Assembly (NCBI GenBank): GCA_964571255.1
Contig: CAZNAA010000001.1
Coordinates: 702,230 to 766,229, forward strand
Direction: 5' to 3'
Length of the DNA: 64,000 bases
Source: an uncultured Gammaproteobacteria bacterium
Lineage (GTDB): Bacteria; Patescibacteriota; Microgenomatia; Levybacterales; UBA12049
This document shows, in pieces, positions 45,319 through 54,638 of the stretch. Made by a program: the position numbers and the translations under genes. The notes below the pieces were generated by a model. The model had not been told where the DNA came from. It ran no database searches and saw only the letters and a program-made list of their open reading frames with translations. Position 1 is the stretch's first letter, and the number at the start of each line of letters is the position of its first letter.

Positions 45319-47145
45319 ATGCCAGAACAACTGCTCAAGTCTTTAAATCCTCAACAACAAGAAGCTGTTATCAACTCAGTAGGTCCCTCCATTATTTTAG
45401 CAGGAGCAGGCAGTGGAAAAACAAGAGTTTTGACTTATAAGGTACTCTATCTTGTTCTGGAAAAGCAGATCGATCCATCAGAGATATTGATGGTCACGTT
45501 CACAAATAAAGCAGCTGGAGAGATGAAGGAGAGAATTCAAACTTTTTTTGGAGAGTACCGCATTGGATCCCTTCCTCTGGTTACTACCTTTCATTCTCTT
45601 GGAGCTCGCCTTCTCAGACGTCATCCTGACAGAGTGGGTTTATCAACGGATTTTACGATTTATGATTCGACTGATCAGATTGACGCCATAAAAGAAGTGA
45701 TGCATAGCTTAGGTATTTCTCCAAAAGACGTAAAACCTAGTGCAGCACTCGGGACTATCTCCAATGCAAAAAATGAGCTGCTCTCCCCTGATCTCTATGC
45801 AAGTTTTTCTCGTGGACAATTTCAAGTTGCTGTTTCTAAAATCTATACTGCCTATCAAAAGCTATTGCAACAAAATAATGCAGTTGATTTTGACGACTTA
45901 GTCTTAAAAGGCGTCATGCTTTTAAAAGAAAATCCTGATTTAGCCCAGAAATATCAACAAACCTTTCAATATATTTTAATTGATGAGTATCAAGATACAA
46001 ATAAACCTCAATATGAATTTACCAAACTTCTCTCAAAACAAGCAAAGCATATTTGCGTGGTTGGAGACTTCTCTCAAAGTATCTATTCCTGGAGAGGAGC
46101 AGATTTTCAAAATCTCAAACGGTTTGAAGTGGATTTTCCTGGAACCAAAACCTTTTCTCTTTCCCAAAATTACCGATCAACTCAAACCATACTTGACGGA
46201 GCAACAGCTGTGATCAAAAAGAACACACTCCACCCAGTGTTGAAACTATGGACAGAAAATCCTCAAGGAGAATCTATTGAAGTCTATGAAGCAAAATCAG
46301 AACAAGATGAAGCGGACTTTATTATTCAGAAACTAATAGAGCGGGGAGTGAGTAAATTAGCAGACAACGCCGTACTCTATCGAACCAATGCCCAGTCTCG
46401 AGTGATCGAAGAAGCTTTTCTGCATCATGGAATTCCCTATACCCTTATTGGCGGAACGCGGTTTTATGAAAGAAAAGAGGTAAAAGATGTTTTGTCTTAT
46501 CTTCGACTCGTTGCTAATCCTACAGATTCTGTTTCAAAAACACGAGCTGAAAAATTAGGGAAAGGAAGATTTAGTGCTTTTGAAGAATTTCTCTCTACCA
46601 AGTCAGCTGAAGAGCGAGAAAAAACGATTGATTTACTTGATCAAATTCTTGAAAAAACTAACTATCTTTCTCTGTACAACGAAGAAGATCCAGAAGATAT
46701 GGCCCGACTTGAAAACATTAAAGAATTACGATCTGTTGCCTATAGCTTTCCTGATCTCATTGAGTTTTTAGAAAATGTTGCCTTAGTTGAGAAAGAGTAT
46801 TCAACTGAGGACGAGAAAGCCACTAAAAACACGGTTACGCTTATGACGCTTCATGCAGCCAAAGGATTAGAATTTCCTGTTATTTTTATGGTTGGCATGG
46901 AGGAGGGGATTTTTCCTCATAGTAGATCGCTTATGGATAAGCATGAATTGGAAGAAGAAAGAAGACTTTGTTATGTTGGAATTACAAGAGCTCGGGAAAA
47001 GCTCTATTTGACCTATGCTAAAAAAAGACTTTTTTTCGGACAAAGAACTGCAGGAGTCATGAGCCGCTTCCTTTTCGATTTGCCAGAAGAAGCTCTTTTA
47101 CAGCATACTAGTACTAGTTCCTATTTTGATCCTTATGACGTTTAG
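45319..47145 (+). CDS. UvrD/PcrA/Rep family ATP-dependent DNA helicase (short form)
   Basis: Walker A AGAGSGKTRVLTYKV, DEYQDTN motif II, VGDFSQSIYSWRGA motif III. Confidence 0.85.
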   Translation: MPEQLLKSLNPQQQEAVINSVGPSIILAGAGSGKTRVLTYKVLYLVLEKQIDPSEILMVTFTNKAAGEMKERIQTFFGEYRIGSLPLVTTFHSLGARLLRRHPDRVGLSTDFTIYDSTDQIDAIKEVMHSLGISPKDVKPSAALGTISNAKNELLSPDLYASFSRGQFQVAVSKIYTAYQKLLQQNNAVDFDDLVLKGVMLLKENPDLAQKYQQTFQYILIDEYQDTNKPQYEFTKLLSKQAKHICVVGDFSQSIYSWRGADFQNLKRFEVDFPGTKTFSLSQNYRSTQTILDGATAVIKKNTLHPVLKLWTENPQGESIEVYEAKSEQDEADFIIQKLIERGVSKLADNAVLYRTNAQSRVIEEAFLHHGIPYTLIGGTRFYERKEVKDVLSYLRLVANPTDSVSKTRAEKLGKGRFSAFEEFLSTKSAEEREKTIDLLDQILEKTNYLSLYNEEDPEDMARLENIKELRSVAYSFPDLIEFLENVALVEKEYSTEDEKATKNTVTLMTLHAAKGLEFPVIFMVGMEEGIFPHSRSLMDKHELEEERRLCYVGITRAREKLYLTYAKKRLFFGQRTAGVMSRFLFDLPEEALLQHTSTSSYFDPYDV

Positions 47146-49764: not shown

Positions 49765-50361
49765 TTACTTTTTCTTCAGGGGGGTTGGAGTTTTTTTCGT
49801 GGATGCTTTTACAGCTTCTTTTTTCTTTTTAGAAACTTCATAGACAAAGAGTTTGTGGGCTTTATTTTCAGCAATAATGGGGAAGTAGGGGATAGGGTAG
49901 CGATAACTAATAACTCGTGTCCCCTCTTTTAGTTCTTTTTCTAATTTGGGTTGTAATTTTAATAACGCTCGGGGGACTAAGTAAGTATACACAACAGTAG
50001 CAGGGGAAAGATCAACCTCATGAAAATTCTTTTTAATAATCGTTATTTTGTCTCCTGTCTTTTCTTTCCAGTTGAGAATTCGAGATTGAGTAACACGTAG
50101 GGGATCTACTTCAATACCAACACTTCTGACTCCAAACTCTTTGGCAAGAGTTCTTAAGTTTTCTCCATCACCTGATCCCAACTCGTAGACTAAATCCTTA
50201 TTCGTAATCTTTCCTACTTTTTTAATAGCTCGAGCAACTTTTGCATCTGTTTTCCACCACGGCGCCCAAGGTGAATCTGGAGGCCAGAACCATGAGAGGA
50301 GATAAAAAAGAAAGATAATAATAAGAAGAACAATAATCTCAGAAAGAATAAACCAAATCAC
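49765..50361 (-). CDS. membrane-anchored class I SAM-dependent methyltransferase
   Basis: N-terminal TM; motif I VYELGSGDGENLRTLA. Confidence 0.6.
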   Translation of the reverse strand: MIWFILSEIIVLLIIIFLFYLLSWFWPPDSPWAPWWKTDAKVARAIKKVGKITNKDLVYELGSGDGENLRTLAKEFGVRSVGIEVDPLRVTQSRILNWKEKTGDKITIIKKNFHEVDLSPATVVYTYLVPRALLKLQPKLEKELKEGTRVISYRYPIPYFPIIAENKAHKLFVYEVSKKKKEAVKASTKKTPTPLKKK

Positions 50362-50417
50362 GTGTATTATCGTAGCAGAAATAAAAAAGAAGGTATAGAG
50401 AAAAGGTAAGTGGTTTA

Positions 50418-50514
50418 GTGCCGGGGAGAGGAAGAGACGAGGTATTCGGCTTGTTAGCGCTCAACGCGCTTAGCCGATGTACCATCATCTTTTTTCTTCC
50501 TTCTCCCCAGGCAC
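50418..50514. repeat. 97 nt long-stem structured element, copy A (19 bp imperfect outer stem enclosing a 30 nt hairpin)
   Basis: Outer arms GTGCCGGGGAGAGGAAGAG / CTTCCTTCTCCCCAGGCAC; inner hairpin CGGCTTGTTAGCGCTCAACGCGCTTAGCCG; 3 mismatches to copy B at 52893..52989 over ~110 nt. Confidence 0.6.
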
Positions 50515-50525
50515 TTGAGCTCTTG

Positions 50526-50996
50526 CTATCGCGGGTTTGGGTTCCAGATCACTCCACTTTGGAGAAGTGCAAGAGGAGTCGTTCCTTCACTCATCTCCAC
50601 GTAGGTCTGGATTATTGCACCATGGGGGATATTCTTCCCTTTCGGGTCAAAGTGGCACTTGAGACGTGCCACAGTCGACGGCGAGGAGCAGACTGGCCAT
50701 TTGACTCCACCAAACTCAACCCAGATACTTATGCTTCGTTCAAACGAAGGACCAGTGACTACTACTTCAATTTCCACCAATCCCTCGGCGTTTTCCCGGG
50801 GGAGTCCATCAAATTTGATGAAGTCCTCCGACGTGTTTGAAGGAGTGGATGGGCGAGTAGGTACTGGTTTTGGTCGAGCCTGACTCGAGCGTGGGAGGTT
50901 GTCCCACGCCAAAGCAACGAAGATAAGAAGACCTACGAGTGCTACGGCAAAAGAACGCCATCCTGTCTGTTGTCGGTTACGTGATCGTTTGACCAT
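50526..50996 (-). CDS. signal-anchored secreted protein, module A (diverged paralog of 53002..53448)
   Basis: GGAGGTG Shine-Dalgarno before the ATG; basic N-terminus then hydrophobic helix; shares a C..FDP..IP.G..I block with the copy-B protein; visibly GC-rich. Confidence 0.5.
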   Translation of the reverse strand: MVKRSRNRQQTGWRSFAVALVGLLIFVALAWDNLPRSSQARPKPVPTRPSTPSNTSEDFIKFDGLPRENAEGLVEIEVVVTGPSFERSISIWVEFGGVKWPVCSSPSTVARLKCHFDPKGKNIPHGAIIQTYVEMSEGTTPLALLQSGVIWNPNPR

Positions 50997-51079
50997 GACT
51001 CACCTCCGTGTAAACAGATATCTCCACACCTTCCGGGACATCCGAAAGGTGAGTAGACTCGAGTGAGGGAGCAGAGATA

Positions 51080-51328
51080 CTAGAAAGTCAGGTACTGAAT
51101 CCTCGTCACTCCAGATGTTTCTCGAACCTGAGCCAGATAACTACTGATCTGGTCCGGAGTAACACCTCGATAGAGCGTTGAGAAGAGATATCGTCCCTCC
51201 TCAAGCTCAACAGGATTTCCCGCTACGGCGTTAGACGCCGGTGCTGCCGAGAAAGGAGGAAGCGTTGTATTATAGCTTCCATCCGGAAGCTTCTTCCTCG
51301 TCACTTCCACTGCAATGAGATAGTTCAT
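51080..51328 (-). CDS. small protein (82 aa), module A
   Basis: GGAGGA Shine-Dalgarno 5 nt before the ATG; first gene behind the conserved promoter and leader. Confidence 0.4.
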   Translation of the reverse strand: MNYLIAVEVTRKKLPDGSYNTTLPPFSAAPASNAVAGNPVELEEGRYLFSTLYRGVTPDQISSYLAQVRETSGVTRIQYLTF

Positions 51329-51497
51329 CAGATTCCTCCATGCGGTCTAGATCTGCCCCCTCAAAGACCGCTCAGAGAAAAAAGAAGTAATTCTTTCCTT
51401 TCTTAGCAGTCTTTGCGTAAGACAAACTAATTTAGCAAGAGCTTGTTAAAGAACTAAGAAGAAGTTGAAACGCATTTGTTTCTTTTTCTTCTTATTA
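51329..51497 (-). promoter_or_regulatory. conserved ~165 nt structured 5' leader, module A
   Basis: Hairpins AAGAAGAA-AAAGAAACAAAUGCGUUUCAAC-UUCUUCUU and GCGGUCU...AGACCGC are identical in copy B; the SD lies directly 3' of hairpin 2. Confidence 0.45.
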
Positions 51498-51503
51498 AGC
51501 GTG

Positions 51504-51532
51504 AGATTACCATAAAAATGCCTTGATGTCAA
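51504..51532 (-). promoter_or_regulatory. sigma70-type promoter, module A (-35 TTGACA, 17 nt spacer, -10 TAATCT)
   Basis: Read on the minus strand; copy B has TTGACT / 17 nt / TAATCT. Confidence 0.5.
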
Positions 51533-51597
51533 ACTATGGGATAATTTACTTTGAGTAACTTCTAGACAAGTTACACTCAAAAGAGTATAAATAGGGT

Positions 51598-52203
51598 ATG
51601 TTTGAATTACCCACTCTTCCGTATGACTACTCCGCTCTTGAACCATATATTGATGAAGAAACTATGCGTCTTCACCACACCAAACATCACCAAACCTATA
51701 TTACAAAGCTTAACGAAGCGCTAGCAAAACATCCAGAGATTCATATTGATAACGCAGAAGAATTATTAAAACAACTTACTTCTCTTCCTGAGGATATTCA
51801 GAAAGCTGTAAGAAATCATGGTGGGGGACACAGTAATCATTCTCTTTTCTGGACTATTATGAGTAAAAGTGAGGGGAGTACTCCTTCTGGAAAAATTGCT
51901 AAAGCCATTGAGGAAACATTTGGCAGTTTTGATGAGTTTAAAGAGAAATTCTCAACTACCGCAACAAATATCTTTGGCTCAGGTTGGGCATGGCTGGCGG
52001 TAAAAGAAGGCAAACTTCACCTGCTTGATACAGCGAATCAAGATTCACCACTTCTTCAAGGAATGACTCCTGTTTTTGCTTTAGATGTGTGGGAGCATGC
52101 ATATTATTTGAAATATCAAAACAAGAGAGCTGATTATATTGCCGCCTGGTGGAATATTATTAACTGGGAAGAGGTTGAGAAGCGTTTTGAAAGTGCAATG
52201 TAG
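51598..52203 (+). CDS. sodA: Fe/Mn superoxide dismutase
   Basis: [29 protein letters not shown] and DVWEHAYY metal-ligand motifs. Confidence 0.9.
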
Positions 52204-52893
52204 ATGAAATCCCTATTCCTTAAAATTAGTTTAGTCAGTATCTATCTTGTGTGTTTTCTCGTTCCCGGTTACACCTACTTTTTCTCAAGTCCCACAACTC
52301 TTGAAACTCTTAAAAGCACTCCCATCACTGATCCGCTCTTTCACTTAACCCTTTTTAGACTTTTTGGACTCTATGCCTTTACCCTTGTCTGGAGTCAAAT
52401 TATGCTTGGAGCTCTCAGACTTCCTTTAACCAGATTTTTTGGGAGTAAAATACTAGGATTGCATATCACCTTTGGTATCACTACGCTTCTTTTCACTTTC
52501 TTGCATACCGGACTTTTTTCCCTAGCTCATTTTTTACAAACTCCACCTGTTTTTTTCCCTCCAACCATGTTGCAAACGTATTTGGGAAGTCTGGCAATCT
52601 ATGGATACTTAGGACTCATTGCCTTTGACTTGATGCTTCTCACTACTGCGGCAGGAATCCTGAGAAAGAAGTTATTTATTCGAAAATACTGGAGACTTAT
52701 TCACAAAGGGAATTATCTTATCTTTATTCTTGTTTTTATTCACAGCTCTATGATTGGGAGTGAAATAGGAACTTCTCCTATGCAATATCTCTATCGTTTC
52801 TTTCTTCTCACTTTTATTGGAGTTGTAGGGTACAAACTATACGATGCCAATAAATCCTGCTTACAAAAAGTTACGGAGAATAATGTGGCTTAG
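52204..52893 (+). CDS. bis-heme b-type membrane protein (ferric reductase / MsrQ-like transmembrane domain)
   Basis: Six predicted TM helices with two His pairs spaced 13-14 residues apart (LHITFG...FLHTG; IHKGN...FIHSS); start codon abuts the sodA stop. Confidence 0.4.
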   Translation: MKSLFLKISLVSIYLVCFLVPGYTYFFSSPTTLETLKSTPITDPLFHLTLFRLFGLYAFTLVWSQIMLGALRLPLTRFFGSKILGLHITFGITTLLFTFLHTGLFSLAHFLQTPPVFFPPTMLQTYLGSLAIYGYLGLIAFDLMLLTTAAGILRKKLFIRKYWRLIHKGNYLIFILVFIHSSMIGSEIGTSPMQYLYRFFLLTFIGVVGYKLYDANKSCLQKVTENNVA

Positions 52894-52989
52894 TGCCGAG
52901 GAGAGGAAGAGACGAGGTGTTCGGCTTGTTAGCGCTCAACGCGCTTAGCCGATGTACCATCATCTTTTTTCTTCCTTCTCCTCAGGCAC
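52893..52989. repeat. 97 nt long-stem structured element, copy B
   Basis: Starts in the stop codon of the 52204..52893 gene; the G>A change in the 5' arm is matched by C>T in the 3' arm, so pairing is preserved. Confidence 0.6.
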
Positions 52990-53001
52990 TTGAGCTCTTG
53001 C

Positions 53002-53448
53002 TTACGGGACCTTAACCTTTACTGGTGACGATCGCCAGAACTTTACTCCGGTGTTCAGCTCATACTGAATATTTATTCGCCTACCAGAGGGAATCTCCCA
53101 GATGCTTGGGTCAAACTCGCAGAGATAGATATGTCCACTCCCTCGGGGAGCGGATTGCTCGGGAGTTAGATCACAGAGATGGACCGCTACGGGAGCGTCT
53201 ATCCCTTCCCACTCCCAAGTTCCGAGGAAAGAAACAAGTGTCAGGTCATCCCTACGAGGGACATAGACACTCATCTTGATCTTTCCATCCACCACTCGGG
53301 GGGAATCATTCCAATCTGCTCCAGACTGAAGTGTCCTATTATTGAACAGGAGTGAAATCCCAAGTATTGTCAAAAGGCAGATAGTAACAAGTCCTCGTCC
53401 CCAAGAGAATTTAGAGCGCGGTCGATTAGTGTACGTCCGAGCACCCAT
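53002..53448 (-). CDS. signal-anchored secreted protein, module B
   Basis: GGAGGA Shine-Dalgarno; basic N-terminus plus TM; HIYLCEFDPSIWEIPSGRRINIQ matches CHFDPKGKNIPHGAIIQ in the module-A protein. Confidence 0.5.
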   Translation of the reverse strand: MGARTYTNRPRSKFSWGRGLVTICLLTILGISLLFNNRTLQSGADWNDSPRVVDGKIKMSVYVPRRDDLTLVSFLGTWEWEGIDAPVAVHLCDLTPEQSAPRGSGHIYLCEFDPSIWEIPSGRRINIQYELNTGVKFWRSSPVKVKVP

Positions 53449-53533
53449 AGTGGTGTCCTCCAGTTAGAGATAGTATCGCGACACTTCCGGGACATCCGAA
53501 AGTGAGTACGATTGAGTGAGGGGGCAGAGGTCA

Positions 53534-53758
53534 CTAGAAGAGCCTGTGCATGTGATAGTCGATCAGATTAGGATCAATTTTGAGATTGATCCTAAAGGTA
53601 TTCATATCTTCCTCTGAGATATGATGCCGACTTATTGAAATATAGATACCATCTTTTGGTACCGCGTCAATGCTAGCAAGCAGAGGAACTGAGTCTTGCA
53701 ACGCACATGGATACTTTCGTGAACGCATCTTACAAACAACCAAGTAATCGTACATCAT
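53534..53758 (-). CDS. small protein (74 aa), module B
   Basis: GGAGGG SD then ATGATG; same position as the module-A small ORF but highly diverged. Confidence 0.35.
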   Translation of the reverse strand: MMYDYLVVCKMRSRKYPCALQDSVPLLASIDAVPKDGIYISISRHHISEEDMNTFRINLKIDPNLIDYHMHRLF

Positions 53759-53917
53759 CCCTCCCTGCGGTCTAGATCTGCCCCCTCAAAGACCGCTCAG
53801 AGAAAAAAGAATAAGCTTCTTTTCTTTCTGAACAATCCTTAAAGAGACATTTAAGCAAGAGCTGTTAAAGAACGTAAGAAGAAGTTGAAACGCATTTGTT
53901 TCTTTTTCTTCTTATTA
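53759..53917 (-). promoter_or_regulatory. conserved structured 5' leader, module B
   Basis: Same two hairpin blocks as 51329..51497; the central ~45 nt is variable. Confidence 0.45.
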
Positions 53918-53923
53918 CGCGTG

Positions 53924-53952
53924 AGATTATCATAAAAATATCTTAAAGTCAA
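53924..53952 (-). promoter_or_regulatory. sigma70-type promoter, module B (-35 TTGACT, 17 nt, -10 TAATCT)
   Basis: Read on the minus strand. Confidence 0.5.
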
Positions 53953-54005
53953 ACTATGGGACGGTTTATGTTTGATCTTAGTGCTTTGTACAAAGGGAGA
54001 TTATC

Positions 54006-54638
54006 CTAGATTCCAACTAGTTTATTCGCTAGCTTATCTACTCGTTCATTCATTTCTATTCCTGCATGTCCTGCAACTTTTTCATAGACTACTTGTAACG
54101 CATTTTCCTGAATTACTTTTTCAATTGCCTCAAAGATTTCTTTATTCGCTTTAATCATTGAAGCGGGTTTAAAGAGGTTATGAATCGAGATTTGACTGTC
54201 AGAGAGAATTTTTATTGTTTTATACTTGTTTTTAGCTGCCCAAACTAACGCTTCAAAAATAGCCAACGCTTCTGCTGTATTATTCGTTTGCTTTCCTTCA
54301 ACTAACCCACTTGCTTCAAAGTTTTTGGTAACAAAAGCCCAAGCAGCTTTGGCATTGACTTGTCCATTGCTTGCACACGCCCCGTCAGTCCAAATCTCGA
54401 TATCAAACTGGTGATCTAAAGGAAGCTCTGGAGTCGTAAAAAGAGAGTAGTTTTTATTCACTACTTTAAAAGAGTCGTCTAGATACATTTTCTGACACCT
54501 TGGACAGAAGTAATAGGCAGTATAGTAATATTGTTTTAACAATTGCTCAGGAGTACGTCTGGTTTGACGTACTTGTAGTGGAGTCCTACAGGTTTTACAT
54601 GTTTTATTTGATAAATTCTGCGACATAGGACTTTGCAA
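54006..54638 (-). CDS. rnhA: ribonuclease HI with N-terminal zinc-ribbon region
   Basis: C-terminal RNase H1 residues (IWTDGAC, TNNTAEALAIFEAL, ILSDSQ, HAGIEMNERVDKLAN); N-terminal CKTC...CPRC. Confidence 0.7.
   Translation of the reverse strand: MQSPMSQNLSNKTCKTCRTPLQVRQTRRTPEQLLKQYYYTAYYFCPRCQKMYLDDSFKVVNKNYSLFTTPELPLDHQFDIEIWTDGACASNGQVNAKAAWAFVTKNFEASGLVEGKQTNNTAEALAIFEALVWAAKNKYKTIKILSDSQISIHNLFKPASMIKANKEIFEAIEKVIQENALQVVYEKVAGHAGIEMNERVDKLANKLVGI

Follow-up and report, generated by a model that had tools for sequence, protein, structure and literature searches.

Why should a bacterium keep a long, folded messenger RNA leader nearly unchanged in front of proteins that change so quickly? 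The question arises on the minus strand of a 64,000-nucleotide stretch of contig CAZNAA010000001.1 (the window throughout this text), in which alignment of copies and repeat finding resolve two bicistronic modules of ~1.1 kb, here called A and B. Each opens with the same promoter-like site and leader, at 51329-51532 in module A and 53759-53952 in module B. A previous analysis made from the letters alone (the sequence-only reading) had described the leader as two conserved hairpins flanking a variable segment, and had suggested that it could be a cis-regulatory RNA of the riboswitch or thermometer kind. We find that the leader is under selection as RNA and is one of four conserved non-coding blocks placed around hypervariable genes. 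We give an even chance to the reading that the region is the promoter and 5' untranslated region (UTR) of a self-contained bicistronic module, in which a post-transcriptional RNA scaffold governs stability and folding-dependent translation.

The order of parts is as follows. Block 1 runs 5' to 3' through the promoter, a first hairpin (HP1), a short box (X), a long hairpin (HP2, which holds a second box, Y), the hexamer GACCGC and the Shine-Dalgarno (SD) sequence. After the leader come the first open reading frame (ORF1), then a Y' box, a hairpin (HP3) and a second SD, then ORF2, and finally an X' box followed by a 97-nt hairpin (HP4). The modules are richer in GC than their surroundings, at ~50% compared with ~37% in the flanks. 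The size of the contig (772,860 bp), its 37% GC and its gene content suggest a CPR-like organism. All of the analysis is computational, and related loci were taken from ENA and Logan assemblies only (L003, L004, L005/L006, L013, L014 and L015); the sample comprises six leaders and seven modules from about five closely related lineages.

A promoter-like site before each leader

The sequence-only reading had placed a -35 element, an exact 17-nt spacer and the -10 hexamer TAATCT on the minus strand of both copies, and all three are read there at the positions it gave. In module A (51504..51532) the -35 element is TTGACA (51527-51532) and the spacer leads to TG-n-TAATCT, with the -10 hexamer at 51504-51509; in module B (53924..53952) the corresponding elements are TTGACT (53947-53952) and TG-a-TAATCT (53924-53929). 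The description of this site as a near-consensus sigma70 promoter is fair for the -35 element, which matches at six of six positions in A and five of six in B, but not for the -10 element, which carries a TG-n extension upstream and matches TATAAT at only three positions of six. It is because of this last mismatch that the site is absent from the listing of a consensus promoter scan. When six related sequences are aligned, TTGAC and ATTTTTATGrTAATCT are invariant and 6-7 spacer positions vary, and constant hexamers with a drifting spacer are the pattern expected of a working promoter. The transcription start site (TSS) of module A would then lie near 51497.

Further upstream of module A, between its -35 element and the start codon of the SOD gene (51598, plus strand), lies a near-perfect palindrome, TTTGAGTGTAACTT-GTCTAG-AAGTTACTCAAA (51551-51580). 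The palindrome is kept in L003, L005 and L015, has no counterpart upstream of module B, and is probably an operator of the divergent SOD promoter.

The fold of the leader

Behind the promoter-like site lies, as had been claimed, a conserved and structured leader of ~165-170 nt, and the selection upon it acts at the level of RNA and is specific to the sense strand. Both leaders fold better than shuffled versions of themselves (-55.4 and -61.0 kcal/mol, with z-scores of -4.2 and -4.8). The long exact repeats shared by the modules (32-38-mers) occur twice each in the window and never in a shuffled window, and a 32-mer, GAGCGGUC...GACCGC, is identical at 51342-51373 and 53767-53798 on the minus strand.

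The 5'-proximal hairpin, HP1, was recovered both by folding and by comparison of the repeats as UAAGAAGAA-AAA-GAAAC-loop-GUUUC-AAC-UUCUUCUUA on the minus strand (51455..51494 in module A and 53875..53914 in module B). Its core (AAGAAGAA...UUCUUCUU) is identical in the two copies (51456-51493 and 53876-53913), in agreement with the earlier claim of its conservation. HP1 has an energy of -12.3 kcal/mol (z = -5.9), and its pairs are invariant, all changes falling in its loop and internal loop. A mini-ORF (51441-51470; MRFNFFLVL*) of nine codons in A and 14 in B starts at an AUG of the HP1 loop and continues through the 3' arm of the hairpin. This mini-ORF has no SD and its AUG becomes UUG in L005 and L014, and it is probably not translated.

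The variable segment of ~45 nt does differ between the copies, but rather than an unstructured spacer it forms the 5' arm of the long hairpin HP2, whose 3' arm is the conserved UUCUUUUUUCUCUGAGCGGUCUUUGAGGGGGCAGA. HP2 comprises 31-34 bp and occupies 51351..51427 on the minus strand in module A; in module B it lies at 53776..53848 (minus strand; 31 bp, -39 to -40 kcal/mol) and includes the Y box at 53777-53788. It forms in all six available leaders, with 31-34 pairs and energies of -35 to -41 kcal/mol, and 97.9% of its alignment cells are paired, compared with 54-60% when the partners are slid. Eight pairs have changed on one side only and are still paired (C or U opposite G, or A or G opposite U), and a C-G pair in module B is replaced by A-U in L003 and L005. 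When the divergence between A and B in the 5' arm (nine transitions, seven transversions and one indel) was simulated neutrally, free of structural constraint, the mean energy was -20.8 +/- 5.2 kcal/mol and none of 2000 runs reached the observed -40.0. HP2 is maintained by selection. Of its pairs 8-9 are G·U, and the antisense strand reaches only -14 to -24 kcal/mol on folding, compared with -34 to -40 for the sense strand; the selection therefore acts on the minus-strand RNA.

The second hairpin of the sequence-only reading, formed by GCGGUC and GACCGC, did not fare as well. Taken alone it has an energy of -12.7 kcal/mol and a z-score between -0.8 and -1.35, which is weak and not significant, and its six pairs show no variation. 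Its probability is 0.00 in the ensembles of four full-length transcripts because GCGGUC (51366-51371) is held by the 5' arm of HP2. GACCGC itself (51342..51347, minus strand), the 3' half of that hairpin and the alternative partner of GCGGUC, is constant although its flanks vary, and it is followed in copy A by the SD, GGAGG, at 51335-51339 on the minus strand. The hairpin-2 block was correctly said to end just 5' of GGAGG, the gap being 2 nt in A and 3 nt in B. GACCGC may be an alternative partner in some state of the RNA, or it may be part of the ribosome-binding region. What the drawing of two hairpins leaves out is the long hairpin, the long-range complementarities described below and the place of the leader among four conserved RNA blocks.

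Ligand and temperature sensing: a reading not supported

As to function, the idea of a cis-regulatory RNA stands insofar as this is a cis-acting structured leader, and fails in its riboswitch or thermometer label. Such a switch would refold on meeting a metabolite or heat and so expose or hide the ribosome-binding site of ORF1, and we consider this highly improbable here. The leader does resemble these elements in being a long, conserved and significantly structured 5' UTR (at the z-scores given above) that ends at the SD, in the two mutually exclusive partners of GCGGUC (the HP2 5' arm or the GACCGC by the SD) and in the abundance of G·U pairs in HP2. However, neither of the two states covers the SD, and the second has a predicted probability of 0.00. 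The label is not supported because Rfam gave no match, because an unpaired conserved core and a conserved helix around the SD are both missing, and because the helix that does form is too stable.

On the first of these points, the Rfam search that had been proposed as a check returned no match within 50200-54100, either at gathering score or at E values up to 10, the best sub-threshold matches being microRNA and snoRNA models with 16-25 bits against gathering scores of 34-82. As to an unpaired core, the conserved bases are helical, whereas the HP1 loop and internal loop and the HP2 apical loop vary, and the two hairpins stand in series rather than in a multi-helix junction with conserved unpaired nucleotides. 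RNA thermometers such as ROSE and fourU hold the SD or the start codon in a marginally stable helix. Here the SD lies outside every conserved helix, its probability of being unpaired before ORF1 is 0.25-0.54, and its predicted partners differ from module to module and are not conserved. The alternative hairpin would moreover have to compete with HP2, whose energy of -34 to -40 kcal/mol puts it well beyond melting under physiological conditions. Finally, the genes downstream are hypervariable and fall in no metabolic class.

Scanning for other RNA classes gave no terminator-like site in the leader (consensus scan) and no tRNA or tmRNA in the window. The sole match in the window at gathering score was to RF03531, a Clostridioides difficile 'sRNA included into helicase gene', at 46924-47023 on the plus strand; because it falls inside an ORF for a UvrD/PcrA-type helicase, it most likely reflects conservation of coding sequence and not an sRNA.

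Four blocks and their long-range partners

The leader is part of a four-block scaffold around hypervariable cargo. Between the two cistrons lies HP3, CACCUUUCGG-AUGUC-CCGGAAGGUG, a hairpin of 9-10 bp with an invariant AUGUC loop, at 51027..51051 on the minus strand in module A and 53482-53504 (minus strand) in module B, where the Y' box and HP3 together span 53482..53528. Its stem shows compensatory change: a U-A pair has become C-G in L003 and L014, and a whole pair has been deleted from both sides in B and L013. Each module ends in HP4, the 97-nt hairpin, which together with its UAAACCAC tail occupies 50410..50514 (minus strand) in module A. In module B, HP4 lies at 52893-52989 within a block of 52885..53004 (minus strand) that includes X', and its 3' end overlaps the stop codon of the convergent ferric-reductase-like gene. 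HP4 has an energy of -52.9 to -56.6 kcal/mol, the 136-nt stretch around it has a z-score of -7.1, and copy B carries a compensatory G-C to A-U change. Matches to the HP4 core in four metagenome contigs (L009-L012) were rejected as chance, lying inside GC-rich coding sequence.

HP3 also offers a side observation on possible protein binding. Its invariant CGGAUGUCCCG contains GGAUGU (51027-51051 and 53482-53504), with another GGA ~35 nt downstream in the SD of ORF2. GGAUGU is the 3' half of RUACARGGAUGU, the CsrA consensus obtained by in vitro selection (SELEX, systematic evolution of ligands by exponential enrichment). A site for a CsrA-type repressor at HP3 is conceivable; a motif search of the 64-kb window found no signature of CsrA, nor of RNase III, Hfq or RNase J/Y.

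The boxes of the leader are complementary to sequence at or just after both stop codons. The X box (AGCUCUUGCUA; 51433..51443, minus strand) is the exact complement of X' (UAGCAAGAGCU; 50518..50528, minus strand), which includes the ORF2 stop codon; in module B the two are found at 53852..53863 (AGCUCUUGCUUA) and 52993-53004, again on the minus strand. The Y box (UGAGGGGGCAGA; 51352..51363, minus strand), within the 3' arm of HP2, is complementary to Y' (UCUGCUCCCUCA; 51064..51075, minus strand), 4 nt past the ORF1 stop codon; the module B copy of Y' is at 53517-53528 (minus strand). Y' has the form UCUGC[C/U]CCCUCA and begins 4-8 nt beyond the ORF1 stop in every module. X:X' (11-12 nt) and Y:Y' (9-12 nt) are the longest complements between leader and downstream sequence in each module, except for X:X' in L005 and L014, where it falls to 8 nt; in A, B and L003 it is longest or joint-longest. 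A complement of at least 11 nt arises in 1-8% of shuffles. In copy B an extra U in X is matched by an extra A in X', which keeps 12 continuous pairs, and a C in X that has become U in L005 and L014 gives a G·U pair. Partition-function folding predicts X:X' with a probability of 0.76-0.80 in all four full-length modules, which have unrelated cargo, and Y:Y' with a probability of 0.94-0.95 in A and L014 and close to zero in B and L003, where HP2 keeps Y.

Helices of this length call to mind processing by a double-strand-specific RNase. Phage T7 early mRNAs, the lambda N leader and the rnc and pnp leaders are all known for leader or intercistronic hairpins processed by RNase III. As in those RNAs, long and nearly perfect helices flank the cistrons of the module, and what selection has kept is the helix rather than the sequence of one arm, the 5' arm of HP2 having drifted. 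A cut in HP2, and perhaps in HP4, would remove HP1 and X, free Y and GCGGUC and yield an mRNA that is either translatable or unstable, and this would explain the retention of GACCGC, a perfect partner of GCGGUC that is unable to compete in the intact RNA. However, processing would not by itself account for X:X' and Y:Y', and the A-type helix contains 8-9 G·U pairs as well as bulges. Many G·U pairs and bulges are atypical of the strongest RNase III sites. Together with the lack of an RNase III gene or signature in the window, these points lead us to regard processing as unlikely, though it is the better placed of the alternatives.

The encoded proteins

The leader does precede a small ORF and a membrane-anchored Ig-like protein, as had been reported. 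ORF1 encodes a small ferredoxin/ACT-like protein of 82 residues in module A (51080..51328, minus strand; start 51328) and 74 residues in module B (53534..53758, minus strand; start 53758), and is hypervariable. Its confident model (predicted local distance difference test score, pLDDT, of 83) shows a small, soluble ACT/ferredoxin-like fold for which structure search gave generic matches only. ORF2, of 156 residues in A (50526..50996, minus strand) and 148 in B (53002..53448, minus strand), forms one family in which an N-terminal transmembrane (TM) helix (residues 14-32) is joined by a disordered linker to an Ig-like beta-sandwich (residues 59-150; block-mean pLDDT 76-95). It has two conserved cysteines and an FDP...IP.G motif, and its structural matches were likewise generic (Ig/FN3-like), the ORF2 and ORF1 searches giving E values of ~3e-3 to 1e-2. 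A profile search of 1.84 billion representative proteins found no ORF2 homologue beyond the two in the window, and neither Pfam nor PHROGs assigned a family to any of the four ORFs.

Codon-position identity is ordered position 2 > position 1 > position 3, so the ORFs are real coding genes. They nonetheless diverge quickly. ORF2 is 60% identical between A and L003 and 23-28% identical between A and B, and ORF1 falls into at least three barely alignable types, with the alignable pair (A and L014) at 37.5% identity. The sizes range over 74-86 residues for ORF1 and 148-161 for ORF2. Two further properties of these genes stand out from their surroundings: the GC content at third codon positions is ~0.48 compared with 0.30-0.36 in neighbouring genes, and the ORFs (50526-51328 and 53002-53758) are strongly structured as RNA, with z-scores of -2.8 to -4.0 against +0.7 for SOD and +2.4 for a methyltransferase gene. 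These could reflect foreign origin or selection for a compact mRNA.

An RNA paired at its ends and coding for a membrane protein invites comparison with type I toxin-antitoxin systems, and more generally with an addiction module whose end-paired mRNA would lie inert until processed, with one harmful product and control by an antisense RNA as yet unseen. The end pairing and the co-transcriptional local hairpin recall the hok and aapA mRNAs, ORF2 is predicted to insert into the membrane, and the modules have their own promoter-like site, atypical GC content, a second inserted copy and transcripts that are unusually structured throughout, as the z-scores above indicate. The products themselves argue otherwise: ORF2 is not a peptide of fewer than 60 residues but a protein of 148-161 residues with an Ig-like ectodomain, it is replaced by a soluble protein in L014, and it is truncated in L005/L006 with the scaffold intact. 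In addition, a consensus scan gave no plus-strand antisense promoter common to both modules, the SDs are not consistently sequestered and the ORFs lie ~85 nt apart and do not overlap. We therefore regard an addiction module as quite improbable.

As an analogy, the end-paired type I toxin mRNAs (hok/Sok, and aapA/IsoA of Helicobacter) are nevertheless the closest that we can offer. Their 5'-3' long-distance interaction and transient local hairpins are an established precedent (PMC6733600). The likeness lies in a long structured leader, in local hairpins that form first and give way to a stable helix joining the 5' UTR to the 3' end (by prediction only in our modules, at the X:X' probability of 0.76-0.80), in helices kept by compensatory change and in a compact, highly folded mRNA. 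The modules differ in carrying two larger hypervariable proteins (ACT-like, 74-86 residues, and Ig-like membrane, 148-161 residues), in long-range helices that exclude the SD and in cargo that is exchangeable for unrelated ORFs. Since the size and nature of the proteins do not fit a toxin and the consensus scan brought up no antisense promoter shared by the modules, we place the module outside the type I toxin family.

Conservation and exchange

Compared across related loci, the blocks and the genes have changed at very different rates. Over the stretch that runs from the TSS to the Y box, orthologous leaders share 91-100% identity. Nine flanking genes compared between the window and L005 encode proteins of 84-98% identity and have a third-codon identity of 0.68-0.79, and two short gene fragments by the module (55 and 60 codons) have third-position identities of 0.58-0.88 among the window, L003/L004 and L005. 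On these alignments the non-coding RNA appears as the most conserved part of the locus, and both proteins rank among the fastest-changing of the genome.

In L014 (188-412, minus strand) the Ig-like membrane protein is missing from the second slot and an unrelated, soluble ORF of 74 residues stands in its place between the retained HP3 and HP4, which reads as replacement of a whole cassette between conserved RNA blocks. In L005 (8556-8880, with L006 identical) a deletion of ~250 nt immediately after the Y' box takes HP3, the second SD and the N-terminal TM half of ORF2 and leaves the leader, ORF1 and HP4 intact; the gap of 1 kb here is left unannotated by the gene caller in these two loci. Module B, for its part, is missing from L005/L006, in which the ferric-reductase-like and RNase H genes adjoin stop to stop. 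It is an insertion exactly between these convergent stop codons (52885-54022, compared with 10670-10700 in L005) that alters the C-terminus of the membrane protein (229 residues compared with 226), with no target-site duplication or terminal inverted repeat evident. A B-type module is present in L013. The site equivalent to that of module B holds, in L017 (9251-10378) and L019 (4346-5572), an unrelated protein of 375-408 residues with a twin-arginine-like signal, and this intergenic site, flanked by the ferric-reductase-like and RNase H genes, may repeatedly take in genes of exported proteins.

Evidence of exchange comes from a 480-nt tract of 100% identity between L014 (778-1257) and L006, which extends from the 3' arm of HP2 through the promoter to the first ~250 nt of SOD. 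Its flanks are 80-90% identical on the SOD side and consist of unrelated cassettes on the other, and, with both loci coming from the same sample, the tract is a sign of recent recombination whose breakpoint lies at the junction of leader and ORF1.

Could the blocks then be maintained as DNA, as homology arms or, in the case of X/X' and Y/Y', as inversion repeats, with the RNA folds as by-products? Several of the observations just described agree with this: the wholesale replacement of cargo (three ORF1 types and the 74-residue ORF in L014), the end of the identical tract at the leader/ORF1 junction, the insertion of module B between two convergent stop codons and the fact that X/X' and Y/Y' are inverted repeats bracketing the ORFs. 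The form of the selection is difficult to reconcile with it, though. Selection is strand-specific, the G·U pairs would turn into A·C mismatches in the opposite strand and in DNA, and the compensatory changes in HP2, HP3, HP4 and X:X' preserve RNA pairing and not DNA identity. Further, no recombinase gene is adjacent and the ORFs have the same orientation in seven of the seven sequenced modules. A DNA-level element strikes us, accordingly, as improbable.

Known classes of mobile or variable DNA were also considered and rejected. Integron attC sites carry R''/R' core sites (RYYYAAC...GTTRRRY) at the ends of a hairpin next to an integrase gene; no integrase is found among the neighbour genes, HP4 ends in GUGCC/GGCAC and GTTGAG occurs only in its apical loop. 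A diversity-generating retroelement (DGR) does not fit either, with no reverse transcriptase nearby and variation that spans whole ORFs and is not adenine-specific, nor does an invertible element, with no recombinase nearby and all copies in the same orientation.

The element has a narrow distribution. All of the blocks are absent from the more distant relatives L007, L017 and L019, and since nhmmer profiles of the leader, the intercistronic region and the 3' block found no further copies in these loci or in the whole window, we take it to be confined to a narrow lineage. Exact-pattern scans of viral contigs (leader 18-mer and HP4 core) and of genome and metagenome contigs (leader patterns) gave no match.

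Proposed mechanism and its standing

With the alternatives weighed, we return to the reading of the region as the promoter and 5' UTR of an RNA-scaffolded module. In this mechanism a sigma70-type promoter (-35 element, 17-nt spacer and weak, TG-extended -10 element) would start the transcript a few nucleotides before HP1, and HP1, at the extreme 5' end, would shield the mRNA from 5'-end-dependent decay. HP2, with its 31-34 bp, would form as the leader emerges from the polymerase, locking away the 3' block that bears GCGGUC and the G-rich Y box. Once the downstream RNA has been made, Y may re-pair with the C-rich Y' past the ORF1 stop codon, and X would pair with X' across the ORF2 stop codon to give a 5'-3' panhandle ending in the 97-nt HP4. 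Competition between the local HP2 and the long-range Y:Y' and X:X' helices would then set how and when both cistrons are translated, and the leader would set mRNA stability with no sensing of ligand or temperature. We thus infer a 5'-terminal, protective role for HP1 and a co-transcriptional role for HP2 as the rival of Y:Y', with X:X' closing the mRNA. Because the blocks are conserved, they may also act as homology arms for the exchange of ORF cassettes between strains.

A number of points weigh against this reading and should be set beside it. Both the promoter and the placing of HP1 at the 5' terminus are deduced from sequence, and the leaders number only six, from about five closely related lineages, in which part of the identity is the result of recent exchange and not of purifying selection. 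HP1 and the GCGGUC/GACCGC pairing never vary, and true two-sided covariation in the leader comes down to one pair. As regards the long-range helices, one X:X' pair is broken in L014, Y:Y' pairing is expected in just two of the four modules folded, and the low-complexity purine and pyrimidine runs involved raise the level of chance complementarity. Accessibility of the SD, too, follows no consistent pattern across the modules.

The part assigned to HP1 has well-known counterparts. The E. coli ompA 5' UTR, the aprE and ermC leaders of B. subtilis and the cryIIIA STAB-SD are all 5'-terminal elements that stabilise mRNA. With these the leader would share a stable hairpin only a few nucleotides from the predicted 5' end, a G-rich, SD-like box that precedes the real SD, and transferability, in that it would work before unrelated ORFs. 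It differs in adding a helix of 31-34 bp and long-range partners, and the placing of HP1 at the 5' end is a predicted one.

A different parallel concerns the cargo. The vlp, vsp and vsa genes of Mycoplasma have a conserved part that reaches into the signal peptide, and switch by homopolymer slippage or site-specific inversion. Both there and here, in small genomes, copies with a near-identical promoter and 5' UTR precede highly divergent, membrane-anchored surface proteins; the modules are set apart by structured RNA blocks on either side of each ORF and by the apparent lack of a phase-variation tract or recombinase.

A broader possibility, which we put forward tentatively and think rather doubtful, is that these modules represent a new kind of 'RNA-framed cassette locus'. 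Its scaffold would be built from four hairpins (one at the 5' end, a long switchable one, one between the cistrons with its invariant loop and one at the 3' end), together with nested helices by which each ORF is bracketed at its stop codon. Fixed and self-folding, it would give any inserted ORF the same programme of stability and translation, supply the homology arms by which strains trade cassettes for surface proteins and small proteins, and copy itself into fresh intergenic sites. If this is true, an ultra-small bacterium would have in it a lineage-specific platform for expressing and diversifying proteins that face hosts or phages.

Many 5' UTRs are structured; this locus is unusual in that the RNA outlasts both of the fast-changing proteins and that one slot accepts an unrelated gene. 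It would add an independent second case, beyond type I toxin systems, of an mRNA that combines end-pairing with a co-transcriptional hairpin. If the scaffold does programme mRNA stability and translation regardless of cargo, the module would be a natural and portable expression cassette, and a very small genome, probably that of an episymbiont, would have a means of diversifying its surface proteins without DGRs, invertases or slippage tracts.

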